DNA of 52,826 bases, from NCBI GenBank assembly GCA_034520885.1, contig JAXHNE010000007.1, forward strand, positions 1 through 52,826, read 5' to 3'. How positions within the stretch are numbered: position 1 is the first letter of the stretch; every line of letters begins with the position of its first letter. A program made the position numbers and the translations under genes. This document shows, one piece after another, positions 36,138 through 48,177 of this stretch. This DNA is from Candidatus Saccharimonadota bacterium. GTDB taxonomy: Bacteria; Patescibacteriota; Saccharimonadia; Saccharimonadales; JAXHNE01. The notes under the pieces were generated by a model. It saw only the letters and a list, made by a program, of their open reading frames with translations. It did not search any database and was not told the DNA's origin.

Positions 36138-36154
36138 TGGTGGCTCCGCACAGA
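36138..36154 (-). repeat. 17-nt direct copy of the tRNA-Phe 3' end (scar)
   Basis: TGGTGGCTCCGCACAGA is identical to 36285-36301. Confidence 0.7.
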
Positions 36155-36250
36155 ATACTAGGTATATTCAATCCAAGCGCCCGCTGGCGCTGTGGCTTGT
36201 GACTGAATAGCGAACTTACAGTTCGAATCACTGCAAGGGTAGCAGTCCAA

Positions 36251-36274
36251 GAAAAAAGCCCAAGACAAGCTTGG
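36251..36274 (-). terminator. terminator-like hairpin + T-run directly after tRNA-Phe
   Basis: On the minus strand, CCAAG CTTGT CTTGG then GCTTTTTTC. The same design follows tRNA-Gly. Confidence 0.5.
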
Positions 36275-36284
36275 ACGTTTTTCT

Positions 36285-36360
36285 TGGTGGCTCCGCACAG
36301 ACTCGAACTGTGGACACAAGGCTCTTCAAGCCTCTGCTCTACCAACTGAGCTACAGAGCC
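36285..36360 (-). tRNA. tRNA-Phe (anticodon GAA), CCA encoded
   Basis: 76 nt. Acceptor GGCTCTG/CGGAGCC, D-loop AGTTGGTA, anticodon loop TTGAAGA, T-loop AGTTCGAGTCT. Confidence 0.93.
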
Positions 36361-36399
36361 ACGCTAAATCATTCTACTCACTAAAAGGTGTTTTGCAAA

Positions 36400-36496
36400 G
36401 AGCCTTGTGTCCCTGGGACACCATGATAATTCTAAATCTCATTCGCTCTTCAAGCCCTTTTCTACCTCCGCTGTCTAGCGGATGAGCTACAGAGCC
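36400..36496 (-). pseudogene. degenerate, rearranged copy of the tRNA-Phe 5' half
   Basis: GAGCTACAGAGCCACGCT (36484-36501) is identical to 36348-36365. GCTCTTCAAGCC (36445-36456) is the anticodon arm. GAGCCTTGTGTCC (36400-36412) is followed by its own inverted copy. Confidence 0.65.
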
Positions 36497-36567
36497 ACGC
36501 TGCAATATTCTACCCCGAGAAGACCATTTTGAGAAGACCGAATAGATGGGGTTAAGGGCACACTTGC

Positions 36568-37026
36568 TTATTTTGATGATAATCGTCGGACGCTACCATT
36601 GTTTTCAATGGATGGGCGCGTCTTTTGGCGAGGAAGTTTTTCGTACGAAGATTCCATTGGGTCTTGAATGACCGGAGAAAAACCAACGCGCAATAGCCCT
36701 TCAACGATTCTATTGGTTCTCGGAAAATAGTATCCGACGAGTTGGCCGGAAAATTGCCGTTCTTCTTCGTCTCTTATGACGAGTCCATCAACGTTCGGAA
36801 AACCACAGTCGCTCAAACCCTTTATTTGAATCTCGACCCGTCTATCGGCTGCTTCATAGCTAAAGAAAGTATCAAGCAAGGCGATATCCCCTAGAAATGG
36901 CCACAATTTCGAGTCAGTGCGACTTGACGCCTCAGCCAGGTCAATAACTCGTTCTACGGGTGGCGATTGCGGTCCGCCTGCTATGAACTCAACATCCGGC
37001 TCCCAATCATGATACGCGGCAGACAT
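36568..37026 (-). CDS. hypothetical protein (cassette)
   Basis: 152-aa ORF. TGGTTAAAT extended -10 (37034-37042) 7 nt before the ATG. No recognisable motifs. Confidence 0.55.
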   Translation of the reverse strand: MSAAYHDWEPDVEFIAGGPQSPPVERVIDLAEASSRTDSKLWPFLGDIALLDTFFSYEAADRRVEIQIKGLSDCGFPNVDGLVIRDEEERQFSGQLVGYYFPRTNRIVEGLLRVGFSPVIQDPMESSYEKLPRQKTRPSIENNGSVRRLSSK

Positions 37027-37121
37027 ATAATTTATTTAACCATATTTACGAGCCAAGTAACAAAAATTACGTAAAAAGTGACCACCCAGACTAAAATTGG
37101 CGAATGGCTTTACGGGGTAAA

Positions 37122-39137
37122 CTAATCGGATAATTTTATTTTCCGTAGCAGTTGAGCGTTAGCTGCCACGATAATAGTGGACAGCGACATGAGTACCGCT
37201 CCAATAGCGGGGGACAGCACGAAACCAAAGCCCGACGTCACGCCGGCCGCCAAAGGTATCGCGATGGCGTTATAGCCCGTAGCCCACACAAGGTTTTGTA
37301 TCATCTTTTTGTAGGTCGCTTTGGAAAGTTTCACGACCTTGGCCACGCCCCGGGGATCGCTGCTGGCCAGTACGATGCCGGCGGATTCAATGGCGACGTC
37401 CGTACCCGCTCCGATAGCCATTCCAATGTCTGCCCGCGAAAGTGCCGGTGCGTCGTTCACGCCATCGCCGACCATTGCCACACGGCTGCCGTCGGCTTGC
37501 AGCTCTTTCACTATATCGGCTTTGTTTTCCGGTAAAACTTCCGCGAAATATTCTTTTATTCCCAGTTGTTTGGCTACCCATGCGGCGACCGGTTTCGAAT
37601 CGCCGGTTAACATGGCCACGCGCTTTCCGGAACGCTGCAACGTTGTTACCGCCTCCTTGGATTCCTCCCGAATAACGTCGGCGAGCATAACGGCTCCGAG
37701 CACTCGTTCATCAGATACTACGTATACCACCGTTTTACCTTCTTCGCCCGCATTGTCCACGGATTTTTTCAAGCCGCGGGGCGGATTGACGTTAAGCTCT
37801 TCAAGCAAACGGGGTCCACCAACGTAAATAGTTTTTCCACTTACCGTCGCCTTGGCGCCTCGGCCCGATAAAGCAGAAAAATTTTTGGCGTTCTCCAGAG
37901 AGATCTTTTTCTCCGTGGCGGAGTTGACGATGGCACGAGCGATAGGGTGTTCCGATTCCGCCTCAACACTTGCCGCAAGAGCGAGCAACTTATCGGTATC
38001 TTTATCGATCGCCACCGTATCCACTACGCCTTGCTCGCCCTTGGTTAGCGTACCGGTTTTATCGAACATCACGACATTAATGTTACGGGCGGACTCCAGC
38101 GCCATGCGTTCCCGTATCAACAACCCGTTGCGCGCGGCGCGGGTCGTGGAAATGGCCGTTACCAAAGGAATTGCCAGTCCAAGCGCGTGAGGGCAGGCGA
38201 TAATCAGCACCGTGACCACTCGTTCCAGTATGAATGCCGCCGATTGATTACTGAACAAGGTCCAGCCTATCATCGTAATAATCGCGGCACCAATGGCAAC
38301 GAATGTCAGGTAAAATGCCGCCCGATCCGCCAGAACTTGTGTTTTTGATTTGCTTTTTTGGGCGTCGTCAACCAGCTTCATAATTCCGGCCAGCGCCGTG
38401 TCGTCGCCCAGTTTGGTTACCTTGATCGTCAGCGAACCGCTGCCGTTGATGGTACCCGCGATCACGCCGTCCTTCCCGGTTTTCTTCACCGGCTTGGACT
38501 CGCCGGTAATCATGGATTCGTTGACATCCGATTCGCCTTTTGCCACCTCGCCGTCGACCGGTACGCTCGAACCGGGCCTTACCAGCACTTTATCGCCGAT
38601 CTTTAACTTTGATACGGCGATTTTTTTGGTTCCTTTCGTGGTTACCAACTCCGCTTCGTCGGGAAGCAGCTTCGCCAGCTCATCCAACGCTCCTTGAGCG
38701 TTACTGACGGAAGCCATTTCCAACCAGTGCCCGAGCAACATCACGGTAACTAAGGTGGCTAGCTCCCACCAAAAGTCCATTCCGTCTACGAGGTTCAGTG
38801 TGACGGCCAAGCTGTATCCAAAAGCTACGCTAATCGCCATTGATATAAGTGTCATCATCCCTGGCTGGCGAGCCGCGATTTCCGCCTTCGCGCTTTTAAG
38901 AAAAACCAAACCGCCGTAAACGAAAATGACAATGCCAAGAATCGCGGGAATGTACTCGCTGCCCGCGAAGGAGGGCGCAGTATAATTTAAAAGCCCCATA
39001 ATCGTTTCGGAGTAGAACAAAACGGGAACGGTCAGCGCAAAACTCAACCAGAACTTCTTTTTGAACATATTCGGGCTGTGCCCGGCATGTTTATCGTGAT
39101 CGTGTTCACCGCCGTGTTCATGATGCGAATGGTTCAT
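37122..39137 (-). CDS. copB: copper-transporting P1B-type ATPase, CopB-like (His-rich N-terminus, CPH motif, no HMA domain)
   Basis: MNHSHHEHGGEHDHDKHAGH N-terminus. TGES, CPH (IIACPHALG), DKTGTLT, GDGVNDAP. AAGGAAAG SD before ATG 39137 (the track ORF extends to 39233). Confidence 0.9.
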   Translation of the reverse strand: MNHSHHEHGGEHDHDKHAGHSPNMFKKKFWLSFALTVPVLFYSETIMGLLNYTAPSFAGSEYIPAILGIVIFVYGGLVFLKSAKAEIAARQPGMMTLISMAISVAFGYSLAVTLNLVDGMDFWWELATLVTVMLLGHWLEMASVSNAQGALDELAKLLPDEAELVTTKGTKKIAVSKLKIGDKVLVRPGSSVPVDGEVAKGESDVNESMITGESKPVKKTGKDGVIAGTINGSGSLTIKVTKLGDDTALAGIMKLVDDAQKSKSKTQVLADRAAFYLTFVAIGAAIITMIGWTLFSNQSAAFILERVVTVLIIACPHALGLAIPLVTAISTTRAARNGLLIRERMALESARNINVVMFDKTGTLTKGEQGVVDTVAIDKDTDKLLALAASVEAESEHPIARAIVNSATEKKISLENAKNFSALSGRGAKATVSGKTIYVGGPRLLEELNVNPPRGLKKSVDNAGEEGKTVVYVVSDERVLGAVMLADVIREESKEAVTTLQRSGKRVAMLTGDSKPVAAWVAKQLGIKEYFAEVLPENKADIVKELQADGSRVAMVGDGVNDAPALSRADIGMAIGAGTDVAIESAGIVLASSDPRGVAKVVKLSKATYKKMIQNLVWATGYNAIAIPLAAGVTSGFGFVLSPAIGAVLMSLSTIIVAANAQLLRKIKLSD

Positions 39138-39285
39138 TGTCGACTTTCCTTGTACCTTATTTCTTTTAATCTCTCCCCAATCATAGCAAAAACACCGGCC
39201 AAAGCTGTGTTTAAGTAGGGGTAAAATAAACAAAAACGCCGATTTACCAGGGTGTTTTATGGCCGACGTTACGCCTTTATATTTA

Positions 39286-39560: not shown

Positions 39561-39668
39561 GCTGCATGCCATGGCGACATGCCGTGGGCATATTTCTAGC
39601 CACTAGTGCTGATAAAGTAGGCATTTACAGATTGAAAAACTTGCAGGTCAGTTTAGTTTGTCGCCAGA
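39561..39668 (-). repeat. R1 spacer module, copy a
   Basis: GCTGCATGCCATGGCGACATGCCGTGGGCATATTTCTAGCC.. closely matches 40844-40885. Lies 3' of the stop of 39710..40420. Confidence 0.75.
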
Positions 39669-39709: not shown

Positions 39710-40420
39710 CTATAACAAATGCACGGTTCTTATACTTCTACACCAGAATCCATAGTATTCAGCATCCATTTCCGATTTATCTCTTGGAACCATTAGAGCT
39801 ATGCCTTCAGGTTTCTGAGATTTATTCTTTAAGTCAGGATATGTATCCCATTCTTCACGAGTTATCAAACCAACAACCTCATATAAATTTTGCTTTCTAA
39901 AAACTCCATTAACATGCTTTATTAAGTTTGCGGCTGCAGTGACAAACTTCATGCTTGTTGATTCCGTAATCGAATCTAGTGAGTATTCGACAGACAATGC
40001 GTTGCTATGATTACCTATAAAGCTATTCTTTACTACTCCATCTCTCATTATGCAAACATCAGGAACGCCTAATGCAGCACAGATTGTTTTGCGTGTATCA
40101 TTCAGCTGGTCAGACAATATAAAAACCCCCGAACTTCTTCTGGTCGTATGTATGTCAATTATGTAATCTGGCTTAAACTCTTCTAATTGAGCCTCTAGTC
40201 TGGATAACTCAGTAGTTTCATGGTTTTCAAGTCCAGTATTGTAGATGCGATTCAAGTCACTATCGATAAAACGCTTATTTTTCTCATGTGCCCGTACGTT
40301 CCCTATAAAAAGCTGAATATATTTTTGTAGTTCAGGATGAGCCTTAATGAATGCATTATGCAAGTCTATTCCGTAAACCTCATCACCGTGAATCGCTGCA
40401 ACTATACCTACTTTTTTCAT
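39710..40420 (-). CDS. succinylglutamate desuccinylase/aspartoacylase (AstE/AspA, M14-like) family protein (cassette)
   Basis: Family motifs AIHGDEVYG, RFIDSDLNRIY, IIDIHTT. TGTTATGAT (40427-40435) 6 nt before the ATG. Confidence 0.7.
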   Translation of the reverse strand: MKKVGIVAAIHGDEVYGIDLHNAFIKAHPELQKYIQLFIGNVRAHEKNKRFIDSDLNRIYNTGLENHETTELSRLEAQLEEFKPDYIIDIHTTRRSSGVFILSDQLNDTRKTICAALGVPDVCIMRDGVVKNSFIGNHSNALSVEYSLDSITESTSMKFVTAAANLIKHVNGVFRKQNLYEVVGLITREEWDTYPDLKNKSQKPEGIALMVPRDKSEMDAEYYGFWCRSIRTVHLL

Positions 40421-40528
40421 TAACTAATCATAACAAATAAGTTATTTAGAGTCCTAGTTTGGTCAAAGGCCAAAAATCATAAAACGTGGTTTTACTTGGG
40501 TCATGTCCTGATTGTAATTAAGTGCTGT

Positions 40529-40807
40529 TTAAGCGGCTTTTTGTTCTAGTTTTGAAATTCGTTTGTTATGATCTTCGAGCTGATTGTCTATAGCCTCGTT
40601 CGATGTGTCTAGCGCCTCTCCAACAGAAGCTGCAAGATCATCAATTTTTGTGCTTAATTTTTTATCAAGTTTGGAAATATTTTTTTCAAGACTAGAAATA
40701 TCCTTTTCTAGGTTAGTGATATCTTCTTTGGTAGCTAAATCAGAGGTCTGCTGAGATACCGTGGTTGCAATAAACTGCTTTAAGTCTTGGATAGTGTCGT
40801 CATTCAT
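40529..40807 (-). CDS. small coiled-coil protein of unknown function (cassette)
   Basis: 92-aa ORF with heptad-like LEKDISSLEKNISKLDKKLSTKIDDL. Has a frameshifted paralog at 39286..39524. Confidence 0.6.
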   Translation of the reverse strand: MNDDTIQDLKQFIATTVSQQTSDLATKEDITNLEKDISSLEKNISKLDKKLSTKIDDLAASVGEALDTSNEAIDNQLEDHNKRISKLEQKAA

Positions 40808-40831: not shown

Positions 40832-40952
40832 TGGTGCCGGATAGCTGCATGCCATGGCGACATGCCGTGGGCATATTTCTAACCGCTTCATCAGATAAGG
40901 TCGACATATATAAGCTCAAAGAACTTGTGAATCAGTTTAATTTGTCAGCAGA
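40832..40952 (-). repeat. R1 spacer module, copy b (ends ..GGCACCA on the coding strand)
   Basis: TGGTGCCGGATAGCTGCATGCCATGGCGACATGCCGTGGGCATATTTCTAACCGC... Lies 3' of the stop of 40992..41717. Confidence 0.75.
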
Positions 40953-40991
40953 ATTACTACAAAATTCTTGATTCACCTAACTCACTATTAC

Positions 40992-41717
40992 TTAGGCGAA
41001 AATGAGATATCGGAGTGCTATTATCGTTAACGCAACGGCTATGACTGTCCTGAACTTACTCTGAGGTATTTTATCGACGACTCTTTTGCCGATATACGAA
41101 CCAAAAAGCACGGTGGGTACGGAAATGAGCGCCGCAATCAAAAGAGTGGGAGTTAATTCTATTTCTGACTGCAAATAGCCGACCAAACGTCCGCCGTCAA
41201 TGATGAGACCAATCGCGCCGGCAGTAAACAAAAAGACTTCCTTTTTTAGGTCAAAGGCCGAGAGGAACGTTGCCCTAATGACCCCCTGCACGCCAAAAAC
41301 CGCCGCGGATAACCCTGTCAAACTACCTCCGAGCACTGCCGTTTTATTGTTTTTGGGCAACTTCCATTCCGGGTTTCTGAGGATGTAGATAACGTAGAAA
41401 AGTATAAAAGCGCCGAGCAAACGTAAAACAATATCACTCGAAAAATCCGGCACTAAGCGTGATCCGATATAGCTCAGTATTAACCCCGGTATGCCGAACA
41501 GCGCGATAAGCCGCCAGTTAATGCCGCTCTTGAAAAAGTACATTTTACCGAAGTTTCCTACCGCGTGAACAATGCCAGTAAATAGCAGTACCGGATTAAA
41601 TCCGTAGAATAAAGCCAAGACGGGCACCATAATCGTTGATGTCCCAAAACTTGTAATAGTGCCGACCGCCGAGGCAAAAAATGCCAACAAGACGAGTAGC
41701 ATAATTTCAATAATCAT
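40992..41717 (-). CDS. TauE/SafE (TSUP) family anion exporter (cassette)
   Basis: 241 aa, ~7-8 TM helices, internal duplication typical of the TSUP family (GTSTIMVP.. / GVQGVIRATFL..). Confidence 0.7.
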   Translation of the reverse strand: MIIEIMLLVLLAFFASAVGTITSFGTSTIMVPVLALFYGFNPVLLFTGIVHAVGNFGKMYFFKSGINWRLIALFGIPGLILSYIGSRLVPDFSSDIVLRLLGAFILFYVIYILRNPEWKLPKNNKTAVLGGSLTGLSAAVFGVQGVIRATFLSAFDLKKEVFLFTAGAIGLIIDGGRLVGYLQSEIELTPTLLIAALISVPTVLFGSYIGKRVVDKIPQSKFRTVIAVALTIIALRYLIFA

Positions 41718-41905: not shown

Positions 41906-41920
41906 CTAGTTTAGGTAAAT

Positions 41921-42520
41921 TTAATCAACAGTATCTATGAGCCATACCCCGCCGGAGCGTTTTTCACCATGCCTATTCATAGCTTCGAATATTTTATCTA
42001 CACTAACAAGACGCCACTTAGGGTGTTCGGGACTTGGGTCAATAATTCGTATTTTGTCGCCCACAACTCTGTCGAAGACGACAACGTGTCCCCAATCCTT
42101 TTCTCTGTCGTCAACTAGAACTCCATGATTAAAGCAAAGTAGCGCGTCTGTGTTATTTGCTTCAATCTCACTTAGAGTATTTATCAACTTCTCAGAATCG
42201 CCAATTTCTGAAATAGGCTTTATTTTCAGTCGTAAAGGTATATCAAGATTTTTGAAAGCTGTGTTTGGCTCAAATTCTGGCAAGTATATACGCGTTCCGT
42301 AGCCCGCTGGCGGTTTTTCCTCAGAAGTGCGAACCTTATAAAATAAACCAGCCCTTTCTGGCCTAACGATTAACCCAAGATGATACCCGATTTCCTCGGC
42401 AGGAAGTAGAGGTATGCCATTCTTATACATAATCATCTGAAAACAAGTAGGGACACAACATGATGCCTGTTGAGTAAATGGTATGTAACGAGAGTCATCT
42501 GGTGTTGCCTGTAGTTTCAT
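41921..42520 (-). CDS. putative papain-like/C39-like cysteine peptidase (cassette)
   Basis: Candidate Cys (SCCVPTCFQMIMY) and His (WGHVVVFDRV) catalytic pair. Start set to ATG 42520 because ATG 42532 lies inside the TGATATGAT -10 (42528-42536). Confidence 0.4.
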   Translation of the reverse strand: MKLQATPDDSRYIPFTQQASCCVPTCFQMIMYKNGIPLLPAEEIGYHLGLIVRPERAGLFYKVRTSEEKPPAGYGTRIYLPEFEPNTAFKNLDIPLRLKIKPISEIGDSEKLINTLSEIEANNTDALLCFNHGVLVDDREKDWGHVVVFDRVVGDKIRIIDPSPEHPKWRLVSVDKIFEAMNRHGEKRSGGVWLIDTVD

Positions 42521-42534
42521 TTGTTTAATCATAT

Positions 42535-42589
42535 CAAAGAAGTTAGTGAGAGTCCTGTTTGATCAGAGGCCAATAACAAGCAAAAAACG
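42535..42589 (-). repeat. R2 spacer module (55 nt identical to 44201-44255)
   Basis: CAAAGAAGTTAGTGAGAGTCCTGTTTGATCAGAGGCCAATAACAAGCAAAAAACG, read in both places. Confidence 0.85.
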
Positions 42590-42667: not shown

Positions 42668-43378
42668 TCAAGTTTTTTGAAATACTGCCCAAATATGGTT
42701 ACAGTTATATTCATTGCCAAAGAAAGTTGCCTTCTTTGGAACACGTTCTAGTGTAACTAGATTGAGATCGCTATAAAATTGCTTGACCTCGTCCTCGGTA
42801 AAAGCTTTTTCATATTTCCCATTAACGGGATGAATGAAGCTGCCAGCATCAGGACCAGGATGCTTTTTAATCATTTCCTTATGAAACTCATCGTCGGTAG
42901 AGAGCAAGTAGACCATTAAATAGCCGCCCGGTTTTAAGACCTGAATTAAATTACTGAGTGCAGCTTCACGACCCTCGATACTTTCAATATCAGTAGAACC
43001 AAAACAATCAATTGCAAAATCCAAGCTATCTGGCTGAATCGTAAAAGGCTTCGTGACATCCTGCACTATAAAATCAGTCTGGTCCGAAACGCCCACTTGT
43101 TCTGCTCGCCTTTTGGCTTCTTCAATAGCGGTTGGAGAAAAATCCAGTCCCGTAGCAATTACACCTTTCATGGCAAGGCCAAGAACATTTCGGCCTTTAC
43201 CGCAACACATCTCCAAACCTTTAAGTTCGCTTAGTTCTTTACCCTGACTTTTTAGCCACTCTAGAAACTTAGTAACCCCGCTTGAAGCGTCATTAGAATC
43301 CATCTGCAGTAAAACTGTTGGTTTTTGGTGTTCTTTGTCCCAGCGTTCTTGTTGTTCTTCGTGTGTAATTGTCTGCAT
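42668..43378 (-). CDS. class I SAM-dependent methyltransferase (cassette)
   Basis: Motif I LEMCCGKGRNVLGLA, motif II-like DFAIDCFG, post-I D (GLDFS). TGTTATACT (43385-43393) 6 nt before the ATG. Confidence 0.8.
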   Translation of the reverse strand: MQTITHEEQQERWDKEHQKPTVLLQMDSNDASSGVTKFLEWLKSQGKELSELKGLEMCCGKGRNVLGLAMKGVIATGLDFSPTAIEEAKRRAEQVGVSDQTDFIVQDVTKPFTIQPDSLDFAIDCFGSTDIESIEGREAALSNLIQVLKPGGYLMVYLLSTDDEFHKEMIKKHPGPDAGSFIHPVNGKYEKAFTEDEVKQFYSDLNLVTLERVPKKATFFGNEYNCNHIWAVFQKT

Positions 43379-43517
43379 GAACTGAGTATAACAAAGAGGC
43401 GACTAGTAAACGTTACGTATAATTAAAACCTGAATTAACTCAAAAACGCCGATTTACCAGGATGTTTTATAGGGGTAGTGTTCCGGTTAAATTCTACGAA
43501 GCTTTAGCGAAGTAGTT

Positions 43518-43605
43518 TGGTGCCGCCTATCAGGCATATTTCTAACCGCTGCACCTGAGAAAGTTGATGTATATAAACTTAAAGAGCCTGTGAGTCAGTT
43601 TATCC
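43518..43605 (-). repeat. R1 spacer module, copy d (ends ..GGCACCA on the coding strand)
   Basis: TGGTGCCGCCTATCAGGCATATTTCTAACCGCTGCACCTGAGAAAGTTGATGTATATAAACTTAAAGAG... Abuts the stop codon of 43605..44186. Confidence 0.75.
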
Positions 43606-44186
43606 TAGGCAGTGATTTGTTCATTAAACGGTTTAGTGCCGTCCAGAACTAAGTCAGCGAACTCTTTCGGGTCATCCCTCTTGATATAGCCTTCTTCTTT
43701 CTCGTACCACTTCTGCCACATTTCCTTTATCTCATCATCTGGCTTTCCGTCCTGACCTTTATCACGTTCAAAGCCACGCTGTATACAGATATCTAAAGGT
43801 GTATCAACAAATATACCAAAAGATAGATATGGCCTGAACTCTTTGCGCAACGAACTGACGCCTTCTAAAATCATTATATTAGTAACTGGCTGGTTAACGA
43901 CCGGCTCTGGATTATGTGATTCCCACCATTTGGAGCGTGGGTAGTTTAAAGATTTAGATCCATTTTTAATTGGCTCAAATACTCGTTCAATTACTAGTGG
44001 CCACCAGTTCTCTGGGTTGTCCCAACCAGCAAAGTCATCTGTATGGATAACTTCTGCGTCGAGTTGCTTTGCAACCAATTTTGCAAGCGTTGATTTACCA
44101 GACCCGCCATGTCCGTCTATAGATACTATTTTGAGACTCCCGCAATTTGGTTGCTTTTTGCTTAATTCTTTCTCTATTCTGTTCAT
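43605..44186 (-). CDS. P-loop nucleoside/nucleotide kinase-like protein (uridine kinase-like; cassette)
   Basis: Walker A IDGHGGSGKSTLAK. Start set to ATG 44186 because ATGs 44195/44198 lie inside the TGGTATGAT -10 (44194-44202). Confidence 0.55.
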   Translation of the reverse strand: MNRIEKELSKKQPNCGSLKIVSIDGHGGSGKSTLAKLVAKQLDAEVIHTDDFAGWDNPENWWPLVIERVFEPIKNGSKSLNYPRSKWWESHNPEPVVNQPVTNIMILEGVSSLRKEFRPYLSFGIFVDTPLDICIQRGFERDKGQDGKPDDEIKEMWQKWYEKEEGYIKRDDPKEFADLVLDGTKPFNEQITA

Positions 44187-44200
44187 TAAACACATCATAC

Positions 44201-44255: not shown

Positions 44256-44298
44256 CCGATTTACTCGATGTTTCACAGAAGTCTGGTTATTACTGCAG

Positions 44299-44356
44299 TT
44301 TGGTTTACCATGAGCGAATGAAATGAGTCGAATGGTGCCGTGGAGGGGACTGTTCC
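44299..44356 (-). repeat. R3 spacer module followed by a decayed tRNA-Gly 3'-end copy
   Basis: TTTGGTTTACCATGAGCGAATGAAATGAGTCGAA, then TGGTGCCGTGGAGGGGACTGTTCC (about 17/24 identical to the tRNA-Gly 3' end TGGTGCGGGTGAGGGGACTCTAAC by eye). Confidence 0.6.
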
Positions 44357-44449
44357 ATTTTGTTGATAAGCTCGGCAATCCGCCGCAGGCGGACTCGTGC
44401 GAACCAAAATACAAAGGTTTAGTAGAACAGTACAACCTTAGTTCATATT

Positions 44450-45031
44450 TTATTTAGCAGGCAATATCATTTCGGTTTGTGGAAGTGAAGTCATGTAGTC
44501 AGGCCTGCCTTCTTCTTCTGGGACTATTGCGTTGGTTCTTTTAAAACCGTAATGTTCATAAAAGCCAATAGCCTTATCGTTATAGCTAATCACTTCTAGG
44601 TAAATGTCGTTATCTCTGCCCAGAACATTAAGGGCTTGGTGCATTAGTTTTCCGCCAACTCCCGTTCCTTGTACTTCCGGCTCTACATACATTGCGCTGA
44701 TCATCTTTCGGCCTCGCTCATCAATCTGGAGGTCTGTATACCCGACCACTTTGCTGTCAATCTTTGCTACATAGATTCCTATTCCCGCGTCGTCGTCCTT
44801 AGCAGACTGCTCCTTTAGGTGCGCAACTCTTCGCGGTACAAATTCTCCGTTCATGCCTTGTGCGTTAACCCGAATATCTTCCTCAGTAATACCAAGTTCA
44901 GCGTTAGGGTAAGCTTCTAGCCAAGCCCTGTCTCTGATGTCACAAATCGTTTCAGCGTCTTCGGGTTTTGCTCGTTCTATTTCTACTGGCGGTTTTTCTG
45001 TTTCTGGCTTCGGTGTAGTTACTTCACTCAT
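44450..45031 (-). CDS. GNAT-family N-acetyltransferase (cassette)
   Basis: Motif A VEPEVQGTGVGGKLMHQAL and YEHYGFK motif B region. TGGTATTAT (45038-45046) 6 nt before the ATG. Confidence 0.85.
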   Translation of the reverse strand: MSEVTTPKPETEKPPVEIERAKPEDAETICDIRDRAWLEAYPNAELGITEEDIRVNAQGMNGEFVPRRVAHLKEQSAKDDDAGIGIYVAKIDSKVVGYTDLQIDERGRKMISAMYVEPEVQGTGVGGKLMHQALNVLGRDNDIYLEVISYNDKAIGFYEHYGFKRTNAIVPEEEGRPDYMTSLPQTEMILPAK

Positions 45032-45132: not shown

Positions 45133-45172
45133 TTTGGTTTACCATGAGCGAATGAAATGATTCGAATGGTGC
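45133..45172 (-). repeat. R3 spacer module, copy b (ends ..TTGCACCA on the coding strand)
   Basis: TTTGGTTTACCATGAGCGAATGAAATGATTCGAATGGTGC; nearly identical to 44299-44338. Confidence 0.75.
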
Positions 45173-45296
45173 AAGATAGTTGACCCTACGACGCTAAAGC
45201 TTTGAAGGGCTCAGCGCATTTCAGACATCGGCAATAGAAGAGCATAACAATCAAAAACTCAGTGACTTGATAAAGTTGTTTGGACTTTCGGCAGAT

Positions 45297-45815
45297 TTAA
45301 TTTAGCAAGAACTTCTCTTCAAGCACAGTATTCTCATTCTGGTCTACAATCTTGACCCTCACCCTAACATCCTCTAATACATAGTTATTATCTTCTGGAT
45401 GTTGCCGCGGTACCTTGTCACGAATTTCATCTTTTTCTTTTATGGCTTCATTGACAGATTTTGCCGAAAGATTTTGAGCAACAACTTTATAAGAATAGCT
45501 GTCTCCTTTAAGTCGGCTATATGCAAGTTCAGCACTAAATATTTTCTTATACTGATTCCCTGACTTTGTATCCGCCAAAATCTGCTTAGTCTTAGCTACG
45601 GTTTCTGAGGCAAATCCTTCTTCGTTATCAAAAGCCTCGTTGTCCCAATCAAACTGAAATTCACTGATATAATCCGCAAGAATTTGTGAGTTACCAGTAA
45701 GGTCACTTCGTTCTGGTATATCAACTTTGGCTAAATTTTCTGCAAGTTGCACTAAGTCATCTGACGAGTTAACGGCTTCATCAATGTTATTAATGAATGA
45801 TTTTTCCTGGTTCAT
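45297..45815 (-). CDS. hypothetical protein (cassette)
   Basis: 172-aa ORF. TGATACTAT (45822-45830) 6 nt before the ATG, directly preceded by hairpin GACCC..GGGTC + T-run (45831-45850). Confidence 0.6.
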   Translation of the reverse strand: MNQEKSFINNIDEAVNSSDDLVQLAENLAKVDIPERSDLTGNSQILADYISEFQFDWDNEAFDNEEGFASETVAKTKQILADTKSGNQYKKIFSAELAYSRLKGDSYSYKVVAQNLSAKSVNEAIKEKDEIRDKVPRQHPEDNNYVLEDVRVRVKIVDQNENTVLEEKFLLN

Positions 45816-45893: not shown

Positions 45894-45995
45894 TGGTGCG
45901 AGTGAAGCCTGTCCGCTTTTGGAGGGAGACTCAAAAACTCTTAACCGCGACCCGGTTAAGAGCTAGCTCGACGATTGATAATTTTTGAAGAGGCC
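45894..45995 (-). repeat. R4 spacer module, copy a (begins with the tRNA-like TGGTGCGAGTGA)
   Basis: Shares TGGTGCG[A/G]GTGA and CTCGA[C/A]GATTGAT[A/T]ATTTTTGAAGAG with 46791-46868. Its internal ~26-nt segment is in the opposite orientation. Confidence 0.65.
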
Positions 45996-46086
45996 GAGAG
46001 TTGAGAATCTATTTCAGCCCAGATCAAAAAGAAAACCCCACGTGGTAGTGGGGCTATCTTTTTGGTGCAAGATAAAGAGTGATAAT

Positions 46087-46407
46087 CTAACTCTTTTTTG
46101 ATCGGGCAGCAATTGCAAAATCCATGAAGTACTTCTCTAAACTATGATCTACATTGTCTGTCAGTATCGAATTTGCGAATTGTTCACGTGCTATCAAGAG
46201 TTCATAGGGGTCTTTTCCTTGTGCAGCCCATGCTCTAACAGTTGCGTTTATTAAATCCATACCGCGATGAAAAGCAGTCGTCATGCGTCGCTCATTTCCT
46301 TTTCGCTTGCCATTCAAAGCCCTGCCGACTTCAGATCCAATATTACCCAACTGCCAAAAAACAGAATGAGAAGCCCAAGCAGCCTCATCGAATACATGCT
46401 TACTCAT
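46087..46407 (-). CDS. hypothetical protein, second gene of a two-gene cassette
   Basis: ATG 46407 overlaps the stop of the upstream ORF in the sequence ATGAGTAA. 106 aa, helical, no recognisable motif. Confidence 0.55.
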   Translation of the reverse strand: MSKHVFDEAAWASHSVFWQLGNIGSEVGRALNGKRKGNERRMTTAFHRGMDLINATVRAWAAQGKDPYELLIAREQFANSILTDNVDHSLEKYFMDFAIAARSKKS

Positions 46408-46741
46408 GCACAATCTCCCCAATAATTTCTATGATTTTTTTGCGTACTTCCTTGTCGAGTACATCTTTGGAGGCATTGTCTTGAGAAGGTCTTATATTGA
46501 TCATTGAGTCGAACTCTACAAAATCATCAGTCCCAAAATCATCTGGGTGTAGATTTATGCCCCACAAGTCATTCTGTCTGGAGCCTTGTTTTAGTAATTC
46601 TTGCTCACCATCGTAGTGCATCGGCATATCTAAAATAACGATTCGTTTCTCAATATCAACATCGGCTTTGACGAGCTCTCCAAACATTTTATCAGCCATT
46701 TCTTTAAGCTCATTAACTGATATACTCTTCACGATTTTCAT
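46400..46741 (-). CDS. hypothetical protein, first gene of a two-gene cassette
   Basis: 113-aa acidic ORF. TGTTATACT (46748-46756) 6 nt before the ATG. Confidence 0.6.
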   Translation of the reverse strand: MKIVKSISVNELKEMADKMFGELVKADVDIEKRIVILDMPMHYDGEQELLKQGSRQNDLWGINLHPDDFGTDDFVEFDSMINIRPSQDNASKDVLDKEVRKKIIEIIGEIVHE

Positions 46742-46790: not shown

Positions 46791-46868
46791 TTGGTGCGGG
46801 TGATGAGACCCGCCAAAAGGTGGACAGGCAACTAGGGGCTCTCGAAGATTGATTATTTTTGAAGAGAC
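46791..46868 (-). repeat. R4 spacer module, copy b (begins with TGGTGCGGGTGA, identical to the first 12 nt of the tRNA-Gly 3' end)
   Basis: Direct comparison with 47927-47938 and with 45894-45995. Confidence 0.65.
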
Positions 46869-46927
46869 CAGGGGGTTAGATCTAGGCCCTTCGACAGGCT
46901 CAGGGTCATTCGACTAATAAAAACGCC

Positions 46928-47090
46928 CATGGTTTACCATCTTTCGACCATGAGGCTCAAGATCGAATGGTGAGCGAATGAAATGAGTTGAATGGTGCCG
47001 GATAGCCGGCATATTTCTAACCGCTACACCAGAGAAGGTTGATTTTTATAAGCTCAATGAATTAATCGGCCAATTCGATCTTGCAGCTTA
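46928..47090 (-). repeat. R3 (copy c) + R1 (copy e) spacer modules
   Basis: ..GAATGGTGAGCGAATGAAATGAGTTGAATGGTGCCGGATAGCCGGCATATTTCTAACCGCTACACC... Lies directly 3' of the stop of 47095..47664. Confidence 0.7.
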
Positions 47091-47094
47091 CTTA

Positions 47095-47664
47095 CTAAGC
47101 TAATAAGTGGGGGTTTGTTTTTTGAAGCTCTATAAACTGGTCTAGGTATGGCTTTAAGTATTGTGATTGTTCAATTTTAGAGCGGAACTTATTCTCCCAA
47201 CCCTTCTGCGTAAGATTATACTTTTTCCATAGAGCAATATCTCCATGAATTAGCGTGAAGGCTGGCATTAATTTATCTAGACCGTATATGAATTTACTTT
47301 CTTCATCAGCCATTTTTTCATACTGCTCAATAAGCTCAGCAAAATTGCTAGTGAGCTCATCGTTTTTTAGTTTCAGTAAGGCTTGGTGCTCTTTATTGGA
47401 TTTCTCAGCTACTTGTTTATCATCAAGTGGGAACGCGTCTCCTGCGTAAACTTCTACTAAATCGTGGATGAGTGCGTATTTTATTACTAGGCTTAAATCT
47501 AAAGGTAGATTGTCTTTAGAAATGATAAGCCACGCCGCCATCGCAAGGTTATAAGAATGTTCGGTATCGTTTTCAGGCCTATTTAATTTCGGAATTGGTA
47601 TATTGCGTTCTACTGCTTGAAAATCAATTAAGATACTAATGAAGTTAGTAATGTTTACTGCCAT
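47095..47664 (-). CDS. HD-domain phosphohydrolase (YfbR-like 5'-nucleotidase family; cassette)
   Basis: H..HD..D pattern (TEHSYNLAMAAW, LIHDLVEVYAGD). TGTTAGACT (47671-47679) 6 nt before the ATG. Confidence 0.75.
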   Translation of the reverse strand: MAVNITNFISILIDFQAVERNIPIPKLNRPENDTEHSYNLAMAAWLIISKDNLPLDLSLVIKYALIHDLVEVYAGDAFPLDDKQVAEKSNKEHQALLKLKNDELTSNFAELIEQYEKMADEESKFIYGLDKLMPAFTLIHGDIALWKKYNLTQKGWENKFRSKIEQSQYLKPYLDQFIELQKTNPHLLA

Positions 47665-47744
47665 TACATTAGTCTAACAAAAAGAGACCTGTTCCGCCTC
47701 TTTAGTTAGAAACTATACTGTTTCAAAATTCTTTGGGGTATTCA

Positions 47745-47766
47745 TGGTGCGGGTGAGGGGACTCTA
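47745..47766 (-). repeat. exact 22-nt direct copy of the tRNA-Gly 3' end (att-like scar)
   Basis: TGGTGCGGGTGAGGGGACTCTA is identical to 47927-47948. Confidence 0.85.
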
Positions 47767-47890
47767 CCTACATGTCAAAAACCTTTGCTTTTTGCTCGCA
47801 GGCCGCGGCTCGCGGTCTCGCTGAATTGCTCGACAACGCTCCGCCCGTTAGAGTCCCACGAAACTAAAGCAGTTTAGTTTCTCTCACTCC

Positions 47891-47916
47891 AAGAAAAAAG
47901 CCCTACACAGGGTAGG
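47891..47916 (-). terminator. terminator-like hairpin + T-run directly after tRNA-Gly
   Basis: On the minus strand, CCTAC CCTGT GTAGG then GCTTTTTTCTT. Same design as after tRNA-Phe. Confidence 0.5.
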
Positions 47917-47926
47917 ACGTTTTTCT

Positions 47927-48002
47927 TGGTGCGGGTGAGGGGACTCTAACCCCTGGCCTCTTCCTTGGCAAGGAAGCGCTCTAACAGCTGAGCTACACCC
48001 GC
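47927..48002 (-). tRNA. tRNA-Gly (anticodon GCC), CCA encoded; atypical D-loop (no GG) and T-loop (TTAGAGT)
   Basis: 76 nt. Acceptor GCGGGTG/CACCCGC, D-arm GCTC AGCTGTTA GAGC, anticodon loop TTGCCAA, T-arm AGGGG TTAGAGT CCCCT. Confidence 0.85.
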
Positions 48003-48047
48003 ATGATGTGTAATTGTATTATAAACGAACATATCCAGTTATGCGTT

Positions 48048-48177
48048 GCTTCCTTGGCCTGGCAAGGATTCGCTCCTATGTCATTCGATCATACCATGTC
48101 GATATGACGTGGCATGGCCGTATCGAATGATACGGTAACAGCTGCCGCGTCATTCGACACGATTCAGCTACACCCGC
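48048..48177 (-). pseudogene. displaced, interrupted copy of the tRNA-Gly 5' half with two insertions in the D-arm region
   Basis: Anticodon-arm-like GCTTCCTTGGCCTGGCAAGGATTCGCTC (48048-48075), AACAGCTG (48137-48144) and CAGCTACACCCGC (48165-48177) are colinear with the real tRNA. The insertions carry TCATTCGA / TCGAATGA motifs. Confidence 0.65.

Follow-up and report, generated by a model that had tools for sequence, protein, structure and literature searches.

Partial support for a site-specific accretion island at the tRNA-Gly(GCC) gene of a Saccharimonadales (TM7/CPR) genome

Introduction

In the tycheposons of Prochlorococcus, repeated integration at one tRNA displaces older elements into an island, through which partial tRNAs and fragmented integrases lie scattered. 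The cargo is small and adaptive and the genome streamlined; 910 of 937 tycheposons have tyrosine recombinases and partial-tRNA flanks, and a minority use large serine recombinases (LSRs) (10.1101/2020.12.28.424599). In the ssrA-specific islands of Dehalococcoides, the gene for the LSR DsiB directly adjoins the 3' end of a small stable-RNA gene, tandem islands downstream are parted by ~20-bp direct repeats of the target 3' end, some units lack integrases ('cis-mobilizable', accretion) and the cargo is strain-specific (PMC3146451). The 'suicidal' tyrosine integrases of the SSV family in hyperthermophilic archaea are encoded by ORFs that themselves contain the attachment site. When such an element enters a tRNA gene, the integrase gene is broken into two parts that flank the element; fragments accumulate in genomes, and joined forms can be hybrids of different elements (PMC7253208).

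Integrons (IntI, attI, attC) hold co-oriented, mostly single-gene cassettes with a conserved recombination element at each cassette 3' end, and new cassettes appear to enter beside a fixed site. The large serine integrases of phages and ICEs (Bxb1, phiC31, A118, TP901-1) have the domain order Resolvase, Recombinase, zinc ribbon and coiled coil, and use a short common core without long attP/attB identity; their zinc-ribbon-domain motif is shifted in attP relative to attB. The well-studied members have attP outside the integrase ORF, and none of them is known to lose a C-terminal segment on integration. Here we compare these systems with a locus in a 52,826-nt stretch of DNA from a Saccharimonadales genome (the window).

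Results

A low-GC array lies between tRNA-Phe (36285-36360, minus strand) and tRNA-Gly(GCC), both called with ARAGORN (Table 1). Every substantial ORF of the ORF list between these tRNAs is on the minus strand, including all 13 described in an earlier, sequence-only reading of this DNA. That reading judged the island AT-richer by eye, and windowed GC indeed drops from 0.52-0.535 at 37-39 kb to 0.37-0.45 at 39-48 kb. A repeat search likewise recovers its modules R1-R4 and their GCACCA ends in place (R1 as families D1/D3, R2 as D2/D5, R3 as D4/D8, R4 as D11 and D7, the AAACGCCGATTTAC module as D9/D13, and the 22-nt tRNA-Gly 3'-end copy as D7). The tRNA-Gly ends in the shared core GCACCA and has an unusual T-loop, TTAGAGT; the same tRNA flanks arrays in related loci L002, L008, L010, L012, L014, L018, L020, L023, L029 and L031. 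At the other border, the 3' end of tRNA-Phe is repeated over 18 nt (36137-36154), and the 5' half of a second tRNA-Phe is present (36474-36513).

Pfam agrees with most function labels that the island ORFs had been given; 'C39-like peptidase' is not confirmed, since the ORF at 41921-42532 has no match at E<=0.01. An R2-like leader separates the two ORFs of cargo unit 39710..40807, the 92-aa member of which has a homologue in the L012 array. The CopB-like ATPase has host-like GC and recurs as cargo of these elements in other loci, where homologues (58-59% amino acid identity) adjoin tails or recombinase fragments (L019, L029 and L030). R2 leaders have an extended -10 box (TGnTATGAT) 7-9 nt ahead of ATG and occur also in L010 at 85-87% identity, and the terminator module follows GCACCA also in L010, L012 and L014.

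Table 1. Features of the island and its borders in the window.
Feature	Position	Strand	Evidence and remarks
tRNA-Phe locus, other island border	36137..36513	-	ARAGORN, repeats
CopB-like P-type ATPase, distal array end	37122..39233	-	Pfam E1-E2_ATPase 1.5e-49
R1 tail, presumed oldest, degenerate and truncated	39561..39668	+	repeats, HMM
AstE/AspA-like hydrolase (cargo unit 39710..40807)	39710-40420	-	Pfam AstE_AspA_cat 4.9e-18
92-aa coiled-coil ORF (cargo unit 39710..40807)	40529-40807	-	
R1 tail with ~22-25-nt hairpin insertion after core	40832..40968	+	HMM 50 bits
TauE/SafE-family exporter	40992..41717	-	Pfam TauE 1.5e-27
R1 tail, mutated core (CGATGC in place of TGGTGC)	41810..41911	+	HMM 40 bits
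203-aa cargo ORF, no Pfam family	41921..42532	-	Pfam scan
R2 leader, promoter-like	42528..42589	-	repeats; others 44194-44255, 40427-40488, 45031-45062
SAM methyltransferase	42668..43378	-	Pfam 7.7e-14
Terminator module (..GTAAATCGGCGTTTTT)	43441..43470	-	others 39231-39260, 44248-44290, 45082-45124
R1 tail, frame intact (WCRLSGIFLTAAPEKVDVYKLKEPVSQFILGSDLF..)	43518..43622	+	HMM 55 bits
P-loop (uridine-kinase-like) kinase	43605..44198	-	Pfam PRK 2.6e-9
Composite junction: TGGTGC and tRNA-Gly-like stretch 44333-44354 (17/22)	44333..44448	+	
GNAT acetyltransferase	44450..45031	-	Pfam 2.1e-15
R1 tail, FQT subfamily, frameshifted (WCKIVD.. then ..FQTSAIEEHNNQKLSDLIKLFGLSADLI)	45167..45302	+	HMM 18 bits, 1.2e-5
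172-aa cargo ORF, no known family	45297..45815	-	Pfam scan
R4 module, end ..TTCACTCGCACCA	45894..46006	-	repeats
FQT-subfamily tail, truncated; only TGGTGCAAGATA (WCKI) remains	46063..46086	+	
111-aa ORF (cargo unit 46087..46741)	46087-46422	-	ORF list
DUF5674 protein (cargo unit 46087..46741)	46400-46741	-	Pfam 5.7e-30
ORF-less spacer: R3 (46928-46999), R4 body, tRNA-Gly 3' copy GGTCTCATCACCCGCACCA (18/22)	46791..46999	-	
R1 tail, intact (WCRIAGIFLTATPEKVDFYKLNELIGQFDLAAYLLS*)	46993..47100	+	HMM 54 bits
HD-domain hydrolase	47095..47664	-	Pfam HD_3 2e-25
Terminator (tRNA-type), diverged R4-like body, exact 22-nt tRNA-Gly 3' copy (47745-47766)	47745..47926	-	
tRNA-Gly(GCC), integration target	47927..48002	-	ARAGORN; Rfam tRNA 72 bits

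TGGTGC, the reverse complement of GCACCA, occurs nine times on the plus strand in 2,734 nt of island spacers and not once in the opposite orientation. Shuffled sequence gives a mean of 0.47 and a maximum of 4 in 2000 shuffles, so that the proposed scar ends are ~19-fold enriched over their control. In 10 of 10 loci with both a tail (R1, see below) and tRNA-Gly(GCC), the tails are on the tRNA 3' side and the opposite strand; the arrays are linked to this tRNA. Strains also differ at a TGGTGC: contigs L012 and L013 share 99.95% identity across 4.27 kb and cease to be related exactly beyond one, as expected if polymorphism falls at CACCA scars. The earlier interpretation of GCACCA ends as real site-specific recombination junctions is supported. 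What the cassettes contain varies completely among syntenic relatives. L010 is collinear with the window (housekeeping genes ~67% identical at the nucleotide level) and carries different cargo; R1, R2 and the terminator module are common to the two at 78-93% identity. We further note that, depending on the locus, the same downstream sequences are preceded by a real tRNA, by an R4 copy or by a tail. GCACCA is the apparent universal junction.

The R1 repeats are coding. Their plus strand encodes a 35-aa C-terminal tail that begins exactly at TGGTGC and shows clear codon periodicity. Over 21 copies, drawn from 15 loci besides the window itself, entropy by codon position is 0.91/0.75/1.30, and single-nucleotide codon differences are 1286 synonymous versus 1153 non-synonymous in frame, compared with 660/2038 and 426/2223 in the other two frames. 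In-frame stops number 0, where the other frames have 33-85. Of the 21 copies, 19 reach their stop at codon 36-38 (the exceptions are codon 44 in window copy 43518 and 39 in L021 copy 6824), and homology among the copies begins exactly at the invariant TGGTGC. A protein search with the tail profile matched 62 clusters, all of 31-114 aa and always C-terminally, four of which share a conserved N-terminal extension. A profile of this extension matches 134 proteins, among which one bears the name 'site-specific recombinase, partial [Patescibacteria]'; some terminate '...NIWCG*' and others run '...NIWC[SNR]IVDAFQTAA...' into the tail, and a longer fragment contains a Zn_ribbon_recom domain. These homologies show R1 to be the 3' end of an LSR gene, its last 35 codons.

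The tail appears constrained at the DNA level as well. TGGTGC is invariant across tails, third codon positions included, and in 24 of 24 tails examined GTT[AT]GAAA has a spacing of exactly 15 nt to the core, with GTTAGAG 12 nt from it in the tRNA; this fits an att half-site. R1 had previously been taken for a displaced tRNA 3' end retaining the GGTTAGA T-loop signature. We reject a decayed tRNA, as R1 has no Rfam tRNA match at E<=0.1 and carries a coding signal instead: GGTTAGA corresponds to codons F-L-T (TTT CTA ACC) and reads GTTTGAA in the other tail subfamily. The R1, ..GGCACCA and ..TATCTTGCACCA scars, all likewise attributed to tRNA ends, represent the 35-codon tail and have only the 6-bp core TGGTGC in common with the tRNA.

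Within the window, the tail-profile search finds no R1 copy outside 39.5-47.1 kb. The tail at 46993..47100 begins with TGGTGC and is convergent with the HD ORF. In the tail at 40832..40968 TGGTGC is out of frame because the hairpin insertion follows the core, and the degenerate copy at 39561 adjoins a frameshifted copy of the 92-aa ORF (~39290-39523). WCKIVDAFQT tails comparable to the 46063 remnant are present in L008, L015 and L029, and the composite junction also holds a remnant of the C-terminal half of a tail (KYKGLVEQYNLSS, 44407-44445).

True tRNA-Gly 3' copies exist beside the tails. They match the tRNA at 22/22 at 47745, 18/22 at 46792 (with the L002 TCTCTTC allele as reference) and 17/22 at 44333, with 45894 more diverged; the idea of progressively decayed copies thus holds for the first three, which are less tRNA-like away from the gene, and fails for the R1-type scars. 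R4 modules carry such copies and mark this second junction class, which lies in the T-loop. It repeats the final 22-23 nt of the tRNA, beginning at the T-loop, and probably goes with a second family of LSRs, the gene of which would end there. Its youngest junction is 47745..47926, a layout also found directly 3' of tRNA-Gly in L012 and L020.

No recombinase was in view in the sequence-only reading, which therefore left the mobility function open. Consistent with the former, a Pfam scan of 50 ORFs, covering the large ORFs of the window, found no recombinase or transposase domain, and tblastn of the window with two LSRs and recombinase C-terminal fragments matched only the tails. A candidate recombinase family is nevertheless identified in relatives, and the R1 repeats are its remnants. 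In L029, a full-length 498-aa LSR (Pfam Resolvase and Recombinase) reads TGG TGC GGG TGA into tRNA-Gly, ending '...NIWCG*', and L031 has the same arrangement; the two LSRs first seen at tRNA-Gly, in L002 and L018, have the core in another frame and are not R1 partners. A matching tail lies 8.3 kb from the L029 LSR. Joined in silico, the two show 93-96% identity, gapless over the junction, to the contiguous ORFs P0074, P0077 and P0068. Split and joined forms both exist, and attP therefore most likely lies inside the recombinase ORF, as a serine-recombinase counterpart of the archaeal SSV-type integrases. L029 also displays tandem accretion, with an older unit (tail, CsoR/ATPase operon, N-terminally truncated recombinase) distal to the intact one.

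Discussion

The view of the window as a site-specific accretion island at tRNA-Gly(GCC) is partly supported by our analysis. We consider it probable that the island grew by repeated LSR integration at the 3' end of this tRNA, as repeated insertion there had been proposed, by a recombinase whose reading frame spans its own attachment site. The core would sit 35 codons ahead of the recombinase stop, and LSR-catalysed crossover within GCACCA would cut the gene in two. The recombinase body would then be left adjoining the tRNA, now ending '...WCG*' inside it, while the 35-codon tail would be carried to the end of the element away from the tRNA, convergent with the cargo genes, which therefore always have the orientation of the tRNA. 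Each new arrival would displace older units from the tRNA. In the window, the mobility halves would have been lost by deletion, and cargo with R2, R3 and terminator modules, together with decaying tails and tRNA-end copies, would have been kept. Some observations count against this reading. Searches of 5.8 and of 1.8 billion proteins turned up no full-length recombinase that retains its tail, the form predicted to carry attP; all ORFs with a tail from these searches are N-terminally truncated, and more than 100 recombinase fragments share one start point ('GIT..').

The recombinase body is also absent from every window unit, with the junction exactly at GCACCA; after random deletion, ragged recombinase ends would be expected. 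Such clean, residue-free junctions are consistent with a possible but unlikely alternative, integron-like trans-mobilisation, in which the recombinase-free units (leader, gene and tail) are themselves mobile. Putative small circles with both att arms would enter or leave any GCACCA by means of an LSR supplied from another part of the genome or from a co-resident element, with tRNA-Gly perhaps in the role of attI and the tail in that of attC. Depending on the genome, the same leaders indeed come after a tRNA, after an R4 copy or after a tail. Between L010 and the window, conservation is higher for the modules than for housekeeping genes, and L010 has a single recombinase-free cassette precisely between the tRNA GCACCA and a tRNA-type terminator. 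Moreover, what could be a second arm is seen at seven junctions: T[TC]CTAAC or TTTCAAAC, which repeats the GTTAGAAA/GTTTGAAA of the tail in inverted orientation and is placed consistently at +31 to +33 from GCACCA. This putative arm, however, is present at only 7 of 39 junctions, and intermediate stages of recombinase decay (in L029 a complete LSR followed by a 105-aa fragment, and in other places fragments 156-278 aa long) fit progressive loss. In addition, LSRs are normally inactive on attL or attR without a directionality factor.

Integration within GCACCA also has to be weighed against crossovers that all took place in the tRNA T-loop, with '...WCG*' as the native recombinase end and the tail-GCACCA-terminator-R4 block as a conserved distal element end, the carried-along fossil of one ancient event. 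The 22-23-nt repeats suggest such a crossover site, and R4 and an identical 'terminator' after both L029 tails, which continue identically over the 48 nt compared, permit this reading and count against ours. One of these tails is followed by R4 and a tRNA 3' copy into which the older recombinase fragment reads, and R4 modules bearing 22-nt tRNA copies are common to the window, L012, L020 and L029. We nonetheless regard T-loop-only crossover as quite improbable. The tails have diverged into many lineages under purifying selection, and a translated, joined gene is therefore needed; contiguous recombinase-tail ORFs matching the split halves at 93-96% exist. Many unrelated sequence classes follow tail-GCACCA, and L012 and L013 break at GCACCA without a tRNA copy.

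That R1-R4 are generic intergenic repeats (REP/MITE-like or regulatory terminators and promoters, with coincidental CACCA ends), spread by homologous recombination or gene conversion without a dedicated recombinase, is highly improbable and already contradicted by the evidence in hand: terminator-like hairpins and promoter-like boxes are indeed present in the modules, which also recur in a single locus, but R1 has codon periodicity and identity to a recombinase C-terminus, is confined to part of the window and is strictly oriented with its enriched core, the modules are consistently tied to tRNA-Gly, and a promoter scan shows no excess over shuffles (17 versus 19.1).

Accretion by an LSR that splits its own gene relates to each of the systems introduced above. 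As in integrons, cassettes are co-oriented and mostly single-gene, end in a conserved element and appear to enter beside a fixed site. In contrast to integrons, the locus has no IntI tyrosine recombinase, no attC-type folded imperfect palindrome and no GTTRRRY core, its cassettes have their own promoter-like and terminator modules, and its fixed site is a tRNA gene; the likeness to integron arrays suggested earlier does not extend to membership. The domain order and short core are those of phage and ICE large serine integrases, and the half-site motif recalls them too, with its spacing to the core of 15 nt in a P-type arm and of 12 nt in a B-type arm.

The Dehalococcoides islands share the LSR gene adjoining a stable-RNA gene, the tandem units, the ~20-bp repeats of the target end, the integrase-free members and the variable cargo. 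Here, however, a CPR bacterium is the host and tRNA-Gly rather than ssrA the target; the units are much smaller (often one gene of 0.6-1 kb), most junctions consist of a 6-bp core and a recombinase ORF piece without a target repeat, and no DsiA-like second recombinase is seen (PMC3146451). With the SSV integrases, the locus shares the predicted attachment site within the ORF, the split by tRNA integration and the accumulated fragments; it differs in its serine rather than tyrosine recombinase, its bacterial host and a tRNA overlap of 6 bp instead of tens of bp (PMC7253208). The split here removes only the last 35 residues and the 498-aa part therefore keeps its Pfam Resolvase and Recombinase domains; it may well be active after the split. 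Finally, the comparison with tycheposon-type tRNA islands is apt. The main junction here is a recombinase tail, no replication module was identified, and the lineage and gene families are others; shared with tycheposons are repeated integration at one tRNA with displacement of older elements, scattered partial tRNAs and integrase fragments, and small cargo in a streamlined genome (10.1101/2020.12.28.424599).

The R1 repeats form the end of a coding sequence

The names that homologues and related contigs bear assign the window to Candidatus Saccharimonadales (TM7, CPR). The island between the tRNA-Phe and tRNA-Gly(GCC) genes contains 13 intact minus-strand ORFs and one broken ORF, and the organization that a sequence-only reading had described there is real as a whole. 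Pfam assignments bear out the labels CopB-like P-type ATPase, AstE/AspA-like hydrolase, TauE exporter, SAM methyltransferase, P-loop kinase, GNAT, DUF5674 and HD hydrolase, while the label "C39-like peptidase" finds no such backing. Every repeat family was recovered, including an exact 22-nt copy of the tRNA-Gly 3' end, and the impression of AT-richer DNA from ~39 kb is matched by a fall in GC content from ~0.52-0.535 over CopB to 0.37-0.45 at 39-48 kb. The recurrent CACCA ends also stand out from shuffled sequence. TGGTGC, the plus-strand form of this core (GCACCA on the tRNA strand), occurs nine times on the plus strand in the 2,734 nt of spacers (shuffle mean 0.47, maximum 4, 2000 shuffles) and not once in the opposite orientation within the same spacers.

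Read on the plus strand, R1 is an open frame, WC[RHKQ][IV]x[DG][VIA]F[LQ]T...[YF]KLKELVxxFNLxxxL[LI]* (asterisk, stop codon), that starts exactly at TGGTGC and stops beside the stop codon of the converging cargo gene. Across the 21 clean copies compared, codon-position entropies are 0.91/0.75/1.30 and single-nucleotide codon differences are 1286 synonymous versus 1153 non-synonymous in frame, against 660/2038 and 426/2223 in the other two frames. In-frame stops number zero, versus 33-85 in the other five frames, and the terminal stop falls at codon 36-38 in 19/21 copies. Upstream of TGGTGC, these 21 copies share no homology. Many more copies were gained from metagenome and genome scans; a GTDB scan with a first, narrow tail profile recovered only L010, a locus syntenic with the window, the pattern being unable to match the tails of the related loci L002 and L008. 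The two classes of scar that had been taken for displaced tRNA 3' ends are in fact two tail subfamilies, ..GGCACCA corresponding to WCR.. (FLT type) and ..TATCTTGCACCA to WCKI.. (FQT type).

A tail HMM finds 6-7 copies in the window, all on the plus strand between 39.5 and 47.1 kb; two are intact (43518 and 46993) and the rest are core-mutated, interrupted, frameshifted or truncated. The absence of any copy outside the island in the 52.8 kb speaks against R1 as a generic REP-like repeat. As a tRNA-like RNA it was rejected, Rfam returning only the six real tRNAs at E<=0.1. An IMG/VR scan with an R1 17-mer gave one match, on the opposite strand within a 63-aa phage ORF, as fits chance. A 92-aa coiled-coil gene with a homologue in the array of the related locus L012 (52% amino acid identity) is present twice in the window, one copy frameshifted. 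Both copies are followed by an R1 tail with the same hairpin insertion, which makes this a local duplication of a whole cassette.

The tails are also constrained as DNA. The core TGGTGC is invariant, third codon positions included, and GTT[AT]GAAA lies exactly 15 nt from it in 24/24 tails examined; this constraint fits a recombinase-binding arm. In the tRNA-Gly gene, GTTAGAG stands at 12 nt from the core. The half-sites of serine integrases hold the motif for the zinc-ribbon domain at distances from the centre that differ between attP and attB, and the spacing of 15 nt in the tail and 12 nt in the tRNA offers a suggestive parallel.

The tail belongs to a large serine recombinase

Searching 1.84 billion representative proteins with the tail profile yielded 62 clusters, each of 31-114 aa and always matched at the C-terminus, four of which have a conserved extension upstream of WC. 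A profile of this extension retrieved 134 proteins, one annotated "site-specific recombinase, partial [Patescibacteria]". The extension-bearing proteins come in two forms, one ending "...SNIELKDKKLSY...NIWCG*" and the other continuing into the tail as "...NIWC[SNR]IVDAFQTAA...L[IV]*". The WCG ending is exactly what reading on from TGGTGC into the tRNA-Gly reverse complement produces (TGG TGC GGG TGA). Indeed, the recombinase end at the related locus L031 reads into tRNA-Gly, and so does a full-length 498-aa large serine recombinase (LSR) at L029, for which Resolvase and Recombinase domains are recorded and which includes the conserved C-terminal region. A tail, WCNIVDAFQTAAMLAQEDYKLKHLAEQFQLSGSLL*, lies 8.3 kb from this recombinase/tRNA junction. 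When the L029 LSR is joined in silico at WC to the L029 tail, the product aligns right over the junction, without gaps and at 93-96% identity, with contiguous ORFs of other samples. The recombinase fragment P0185 further carries Zn_ribbon_recom, a zinc-ribbon domain typical of LSRs.

Protein searches returned no full-length recombinase still bearing the tail, all tail-bearing ORFs being without an N-terminus. More than 100 recombinase fragment clusters share a start (G|IT(T/Q)..) ~105 residues before WC, with unrelated sequence upstream. This 105-aa piece, seen in P0117, P0144, P0077, P0074 and others as well as at L029 and L030, is 75-80% identical across genomes. Its common start could be a second recurrent breakpoint, or else non-autonomous elements may have a conserved end there. 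For the 534-aa and 380-aa genes in the intact element of L029, no Pfam family is recorded.

Two other sources for the N-terminal part were rejected. LSRs of the L002/L018 type have TTG GTG CGG (..LVRVKRL*) as their codons across the core, a shift of one base from the tail frame, which codon periodicity fixes. A tail gene continuing to the left of TGGTGC, as in a circular cassette, meets stops 1-3 codons upstream in at least two copies, the window's K*VEWC and the NH*NWC of L018. We also note that the tRNA-Gly reverse complement provides stops for both recombinase families, one with the TGA that follows TGGTGCGGG and the other with a TAA within the T-loop. At L014, a 600-aa LSR converges on tRNA-Val and overlaps its 3' end, with a Peptidase_M78 (IrrE-like) gene beside it; this is another tRNA-targeting LSR element in the group.

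The window itself retains only the last 35 codons and no catalytic part, and thus holds remnants of LSR elements rather than an element. None of the 50 Pfam-scanned ORFs covering its large ORFs has a recombinase domain; besides the ORFs of the island, those scanned are housekeeping genes, including MnmA, AlaRS, RuvX, MltG, Obg, UvrA and UvrC, or lack a Pfam family. With the L002 LSR and recombinase C-terminal fragments as queries, tblastn likewise found tails only. The earlier logic of serial insertion at a tRNA end stands, whereas its account of most scars, and of a mobility function out of sight, does not.

Cassette-level variation at the GCACCA core

L010 has ~67% nucleotide identity to the window in housekeeping genes, and carries only two unrelated small genes between tRNA-Gly and tRNA-Cys. 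The two loci have R1, R2 and the terminator module in common at 78-93% identity. Cargo differs in every related locus, and the related tail copies are all 3' of tRNA-Gly wherever the flank suffices. The prediction that cassette polymorphism would fall at the CACCA scars holds in relatives, which are other genomes than the window's: L012 and L013 share a 4.27-kb stretch at 99.95% identity, which takes in the tRNA cluster and two cassettes, and become unrelated exactly from a TGGTGC on. For the window's own genome, an exact-protein look-up of the HD cassette matched only one short contig of identical context, giving no strain variation. Identical downstream sequences come after a genuine tRNA in one locus and after an R4 copy or a tail in others, and GCACCA thus behaves as a universal junction.

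CopB-like copper ATPases (58-59% amino acid identity) are a recurrent cargo beside tails at L019, L029 and L030, accompanied in the latter two by CsoR-like repressors. The window copy has host-like GC and no tail at its 3' end.

Coordinates of features in the window and in related loci
Feature	Locus	Coordinates	Strand	Remark
tRNA-Phe	window	36285-36360	minus	island border
tRNA-Gly(GCC)	window	47927-48002	minus	other island border
tRNA-Phe region	window	36137-36513		copy of tRNA 3' end
R2 leaders	window	42528-42589, 44194-44255, 40427-40488, 45031-45062		extended -10 box TGnTATGAT 7-9 nt before ATG
Exact tRNA-Gly 3' copy	window	47745-47766		22 nt
R4 sites examined	window	46791-46880, 45894-46006		
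R4 site examined	L012	10685-10830		
R4 site examined	L029	10418-10540		
92-aa coiled-coil gene	window	39290-39523, 40529-40807		two copies
Four small ORFs	window	48114-49474	plus	
CopB-like copper ATPase	window	37122-39233		
CopB-like copper ATPase	L019	3863-5869		
CopB-like copper ATPase	L029	5801-7882		
CopB-like copper ATPase	L030	10493-12517		
Recombinase fragment	L029	10100-10429		common start
Recombinase fragment	L030	10001-10432		common start
600-aa LSR	L014	6719-8521		converges on tRNA-Val
R1 17-mer match	L011	5451-5642		63-aa phage ORF

R4 modules mark a second class of junction

Unlike the tails, R4 modules have at their ends true copies of the final 22-23 nt of tRNA-Gly, beginning in the T-loop. 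The window contains three of these modules, of which that at 47745 has a more diverged body, and others occur in L012, L020 and L029. The copies are most tRNA-like beside the gene, with 22/22 matches at 47745, 18/22 at 46792 and 17/22 at 44333, that at 45894 being more diverged. The copy in L012 represents a different tRNA-Gly allele (TCTCTTC) from the resident gene, and thus came from elsewhere. At tRNA-Gly in L002 and L018, another LSR family reads the tRNA end as ..LVRVKRL*, with its stop in the T-loop, and in L002 the tRNA end recurs as a degenerate copy at a distance of 5.3 kb. We infer that R4-type junctions derive from T-loop crossovers by this family or its miniature derivatives.

The array might then be read outward from the tRNA as a layered record: first tRNA-Gly, a terminator, an R4 body and an old 3' end (47745); second the HD cassette with its tail (46993); third R3, R4 and an older 3' end (46792); fourth the DUF5674 cassette, and so on outward. 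At the start of the R4 body, tRNA-Gly positions ~44-60 recur in inverted form (CTCTAACTCTCGACCTCTT), and the body also has a hairpin whose loop, AAAATAATCAAT, is conserved; it may represent an att arm or an inversion product.

A recombinase gene that probably spans its own attachment site

In the simplest reading, attP would lie inside the recombinase ORF, 35 codons before its end, with TGGTGC as its core. Recombination with GCACCA at the tRNA-Gly end would carry the recombinase body to the tRNA-proximal junction and the tail to the distal one, and the joined form of recombinase and tail would be the attP of the free element. Such attP x attB recombination would be catalysed by the LSR. The model accounts for the sharp cut in homology at TGGTGC, for the tail's constant convergence on cargo and for the orientation of all cargo along with the tRNA.

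L029 displays both ends of such an element, with attL (LSR into tRNA) and attR (tail) 8.3 kb apart and both halves matching contiguous ORFs. Element bounds share only a short core with the target, TGGTGC being found at the tRNA, every tail and the R4 copies, and homology ends there. L029 is also a tandem pair, in which the tRNA-proximal unit has an intact recombinase and the older unit consists of a copper-ATPase operon with its own tail and a recombinase reduced to its last ~105 residues. The window looks like a later stage than L029, with only cargo and tails left. We regard integration within the recombinase ORF as the probable main explanation of the island.

Cargo leaders in the window begin right at GCACCA, and the recombinase body is missing from every unit, a precision not predicted by simple deletion. 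Seven junctions have T[TC]CTAAC or TTTCAAAC 31-33 nt after GCACCA, an inverted tail motif that might serve as a second arm, and recombinase-free cassettes might accordingly move in trans.

A bolder and rather unlikely reading is that Saccharimonadales possess an integron-like system of LSR gene capture, in which small cassettes of leader arm, gene and tail arm would be exchanged at the GCACCA of tRNA-Gly. Each integration would swap or remove the 35-residue tail, and the tailed or tail-less state would record, and perhaps control, integration versus excision. If true, this would be a self-rewiring recombinase switch, which has not been described for serine integrases.

Expression modules and tRNA neighbourhoods

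In front of each cassette stand a terminator-like module and an R2 leader, whose TGnTATGAT is near the ATG. The position of this extended -10 box suggests leaderless transcripts of the cassette genes. Terminator-like sites number 13, versus 7.6 in shuffles; a generic sigma-70 promoter scan was uninformative (17 sites versus 19.1 in shuffles).

The usual layout in relatives is tRNA-Gly, a variable run of co-oriented small genes, tRNA-Cys and tRNA-Leu(taa) (L008, L010, L012 and L023, the last tRNA being seen only where the locus extends that far), and L026 shows the tRNA-Cys/Leu end of such a run. In the window (47927-49996) and L029, tRNA-Gly(-) instead stands back to back with tRNA-Cys(+)/tRNA-Leu-taa(+), which implies an inversion with one end at tRNA-Gly. 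Four small plus-strand ORFs in the window, one MazE/AbrB-like and one EF-hand/dockerin-like, may represent the remaining part of the former array.

In these Saccharimonadales, the T-loop of tRNA-Gly(GCC) reads TTAGAGT or TTTGAGT and lacks the C that is usual at position 56; the D-loop is missing the GG pair, a change that may be compensatory. About 130 nt downstream of the tRNA-Phe gene, past a tRNA-type terminator, 18 nt of the gene's 3' end recur exactly, and upstream of the gene lies a second tRNA-Phe, of which only the 5' half is present and whose upstream region is similar. tRNA-Phe seems to be an integration target also.

Implications

Little is known of the ways in which Saccharibacteria, ultra-small epibiotic members of the CPR bacteria, gain genes, and the recombinase described here names a likely mobility function for one of their widespread hypervariable loci. 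That the apparent scars are pieces of a recombinase gene is a useful lesson for annotating such islands. If the ORF truly spans the attachment site, it would be a bacterial serine-recombinase parallel to the archaeal "suicidal" tyrosine integrases and would suggest an independent origin of gene-splitting integration. The site pair is precisely defined (the tRNA-Gly 3' end; the recombinase 3' end plus tail), making the hypothesis directly testable. An active enzyme would offer a site-specific integration tool for a conserved tRNA-Gly site in a group that, to our knowledge, has few genetic tools.

Comparison with known systems

The island is not an integron. An IntI-type tyrosine recombinase is missing among the 50 Pfam-scanned window ORFs, and the enzymes of the relatives are serine recombinases. 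Integron attC sites, with imperfect inverted repeats, R and L boxes and a GTTRRRY core, are not matched by a 35-codon frame with the core TGGTGC, and where integron cassettes are promoterless and served by a common Pc, the cassettes here may have promoters of their own in the promoter-like leaders. REP- or MITE-like repeats scattered without a link to a site were not found over the 52.8 kb and the related loci, the scope of this comparison.

A limited literature search turned up neither an account of this locus in Saccharibacteria or Patescibacteria nor any serine integrase with an ORF that spans attP. The gene-splitting geometry matches that of the SSV-family "suicidal" integrases of archaea (PMC7253208), where attP lies within the ORF and the gene is partitioned on integration; here, split (..WCG* at the tRNA, with a distant tail) and joined forms of one sequence are both present. 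The differences are a Resolvase-family serine recombinase, a bacterial host (Saccharimonadales) and the removal of only a short tail.

As an LSR integrative element, the system is represented by the Resolvase and Recombinase domains of the 498-aa protein in L029 and the zinc ribbon of P0185, whereas the window has the tail only. Among the closest parallels to the array are tycheposon islands, which are tRNA accretion islands (10.1101/2020.12.28.424599) with a tyrosine recombinase and a replication module as hallmark gene families; the likeness lies in partial tRNA copies, up to eight recombinase tails and the tandem units in L029. The ssrA islands of Dehalococcoides have an LSR beside the target gene, tandem units with 20-bp repeats between them, and integrase-less units (PMC3146451). 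They are resembled by the 22-nt repeats at R4 junctions and by the LSR beside the target in L002, L018 and L029. Since the target here is tRNA-Gly and not ssrA, the island is an analogue of the Dehalococcoides islands rather than a member of their class.
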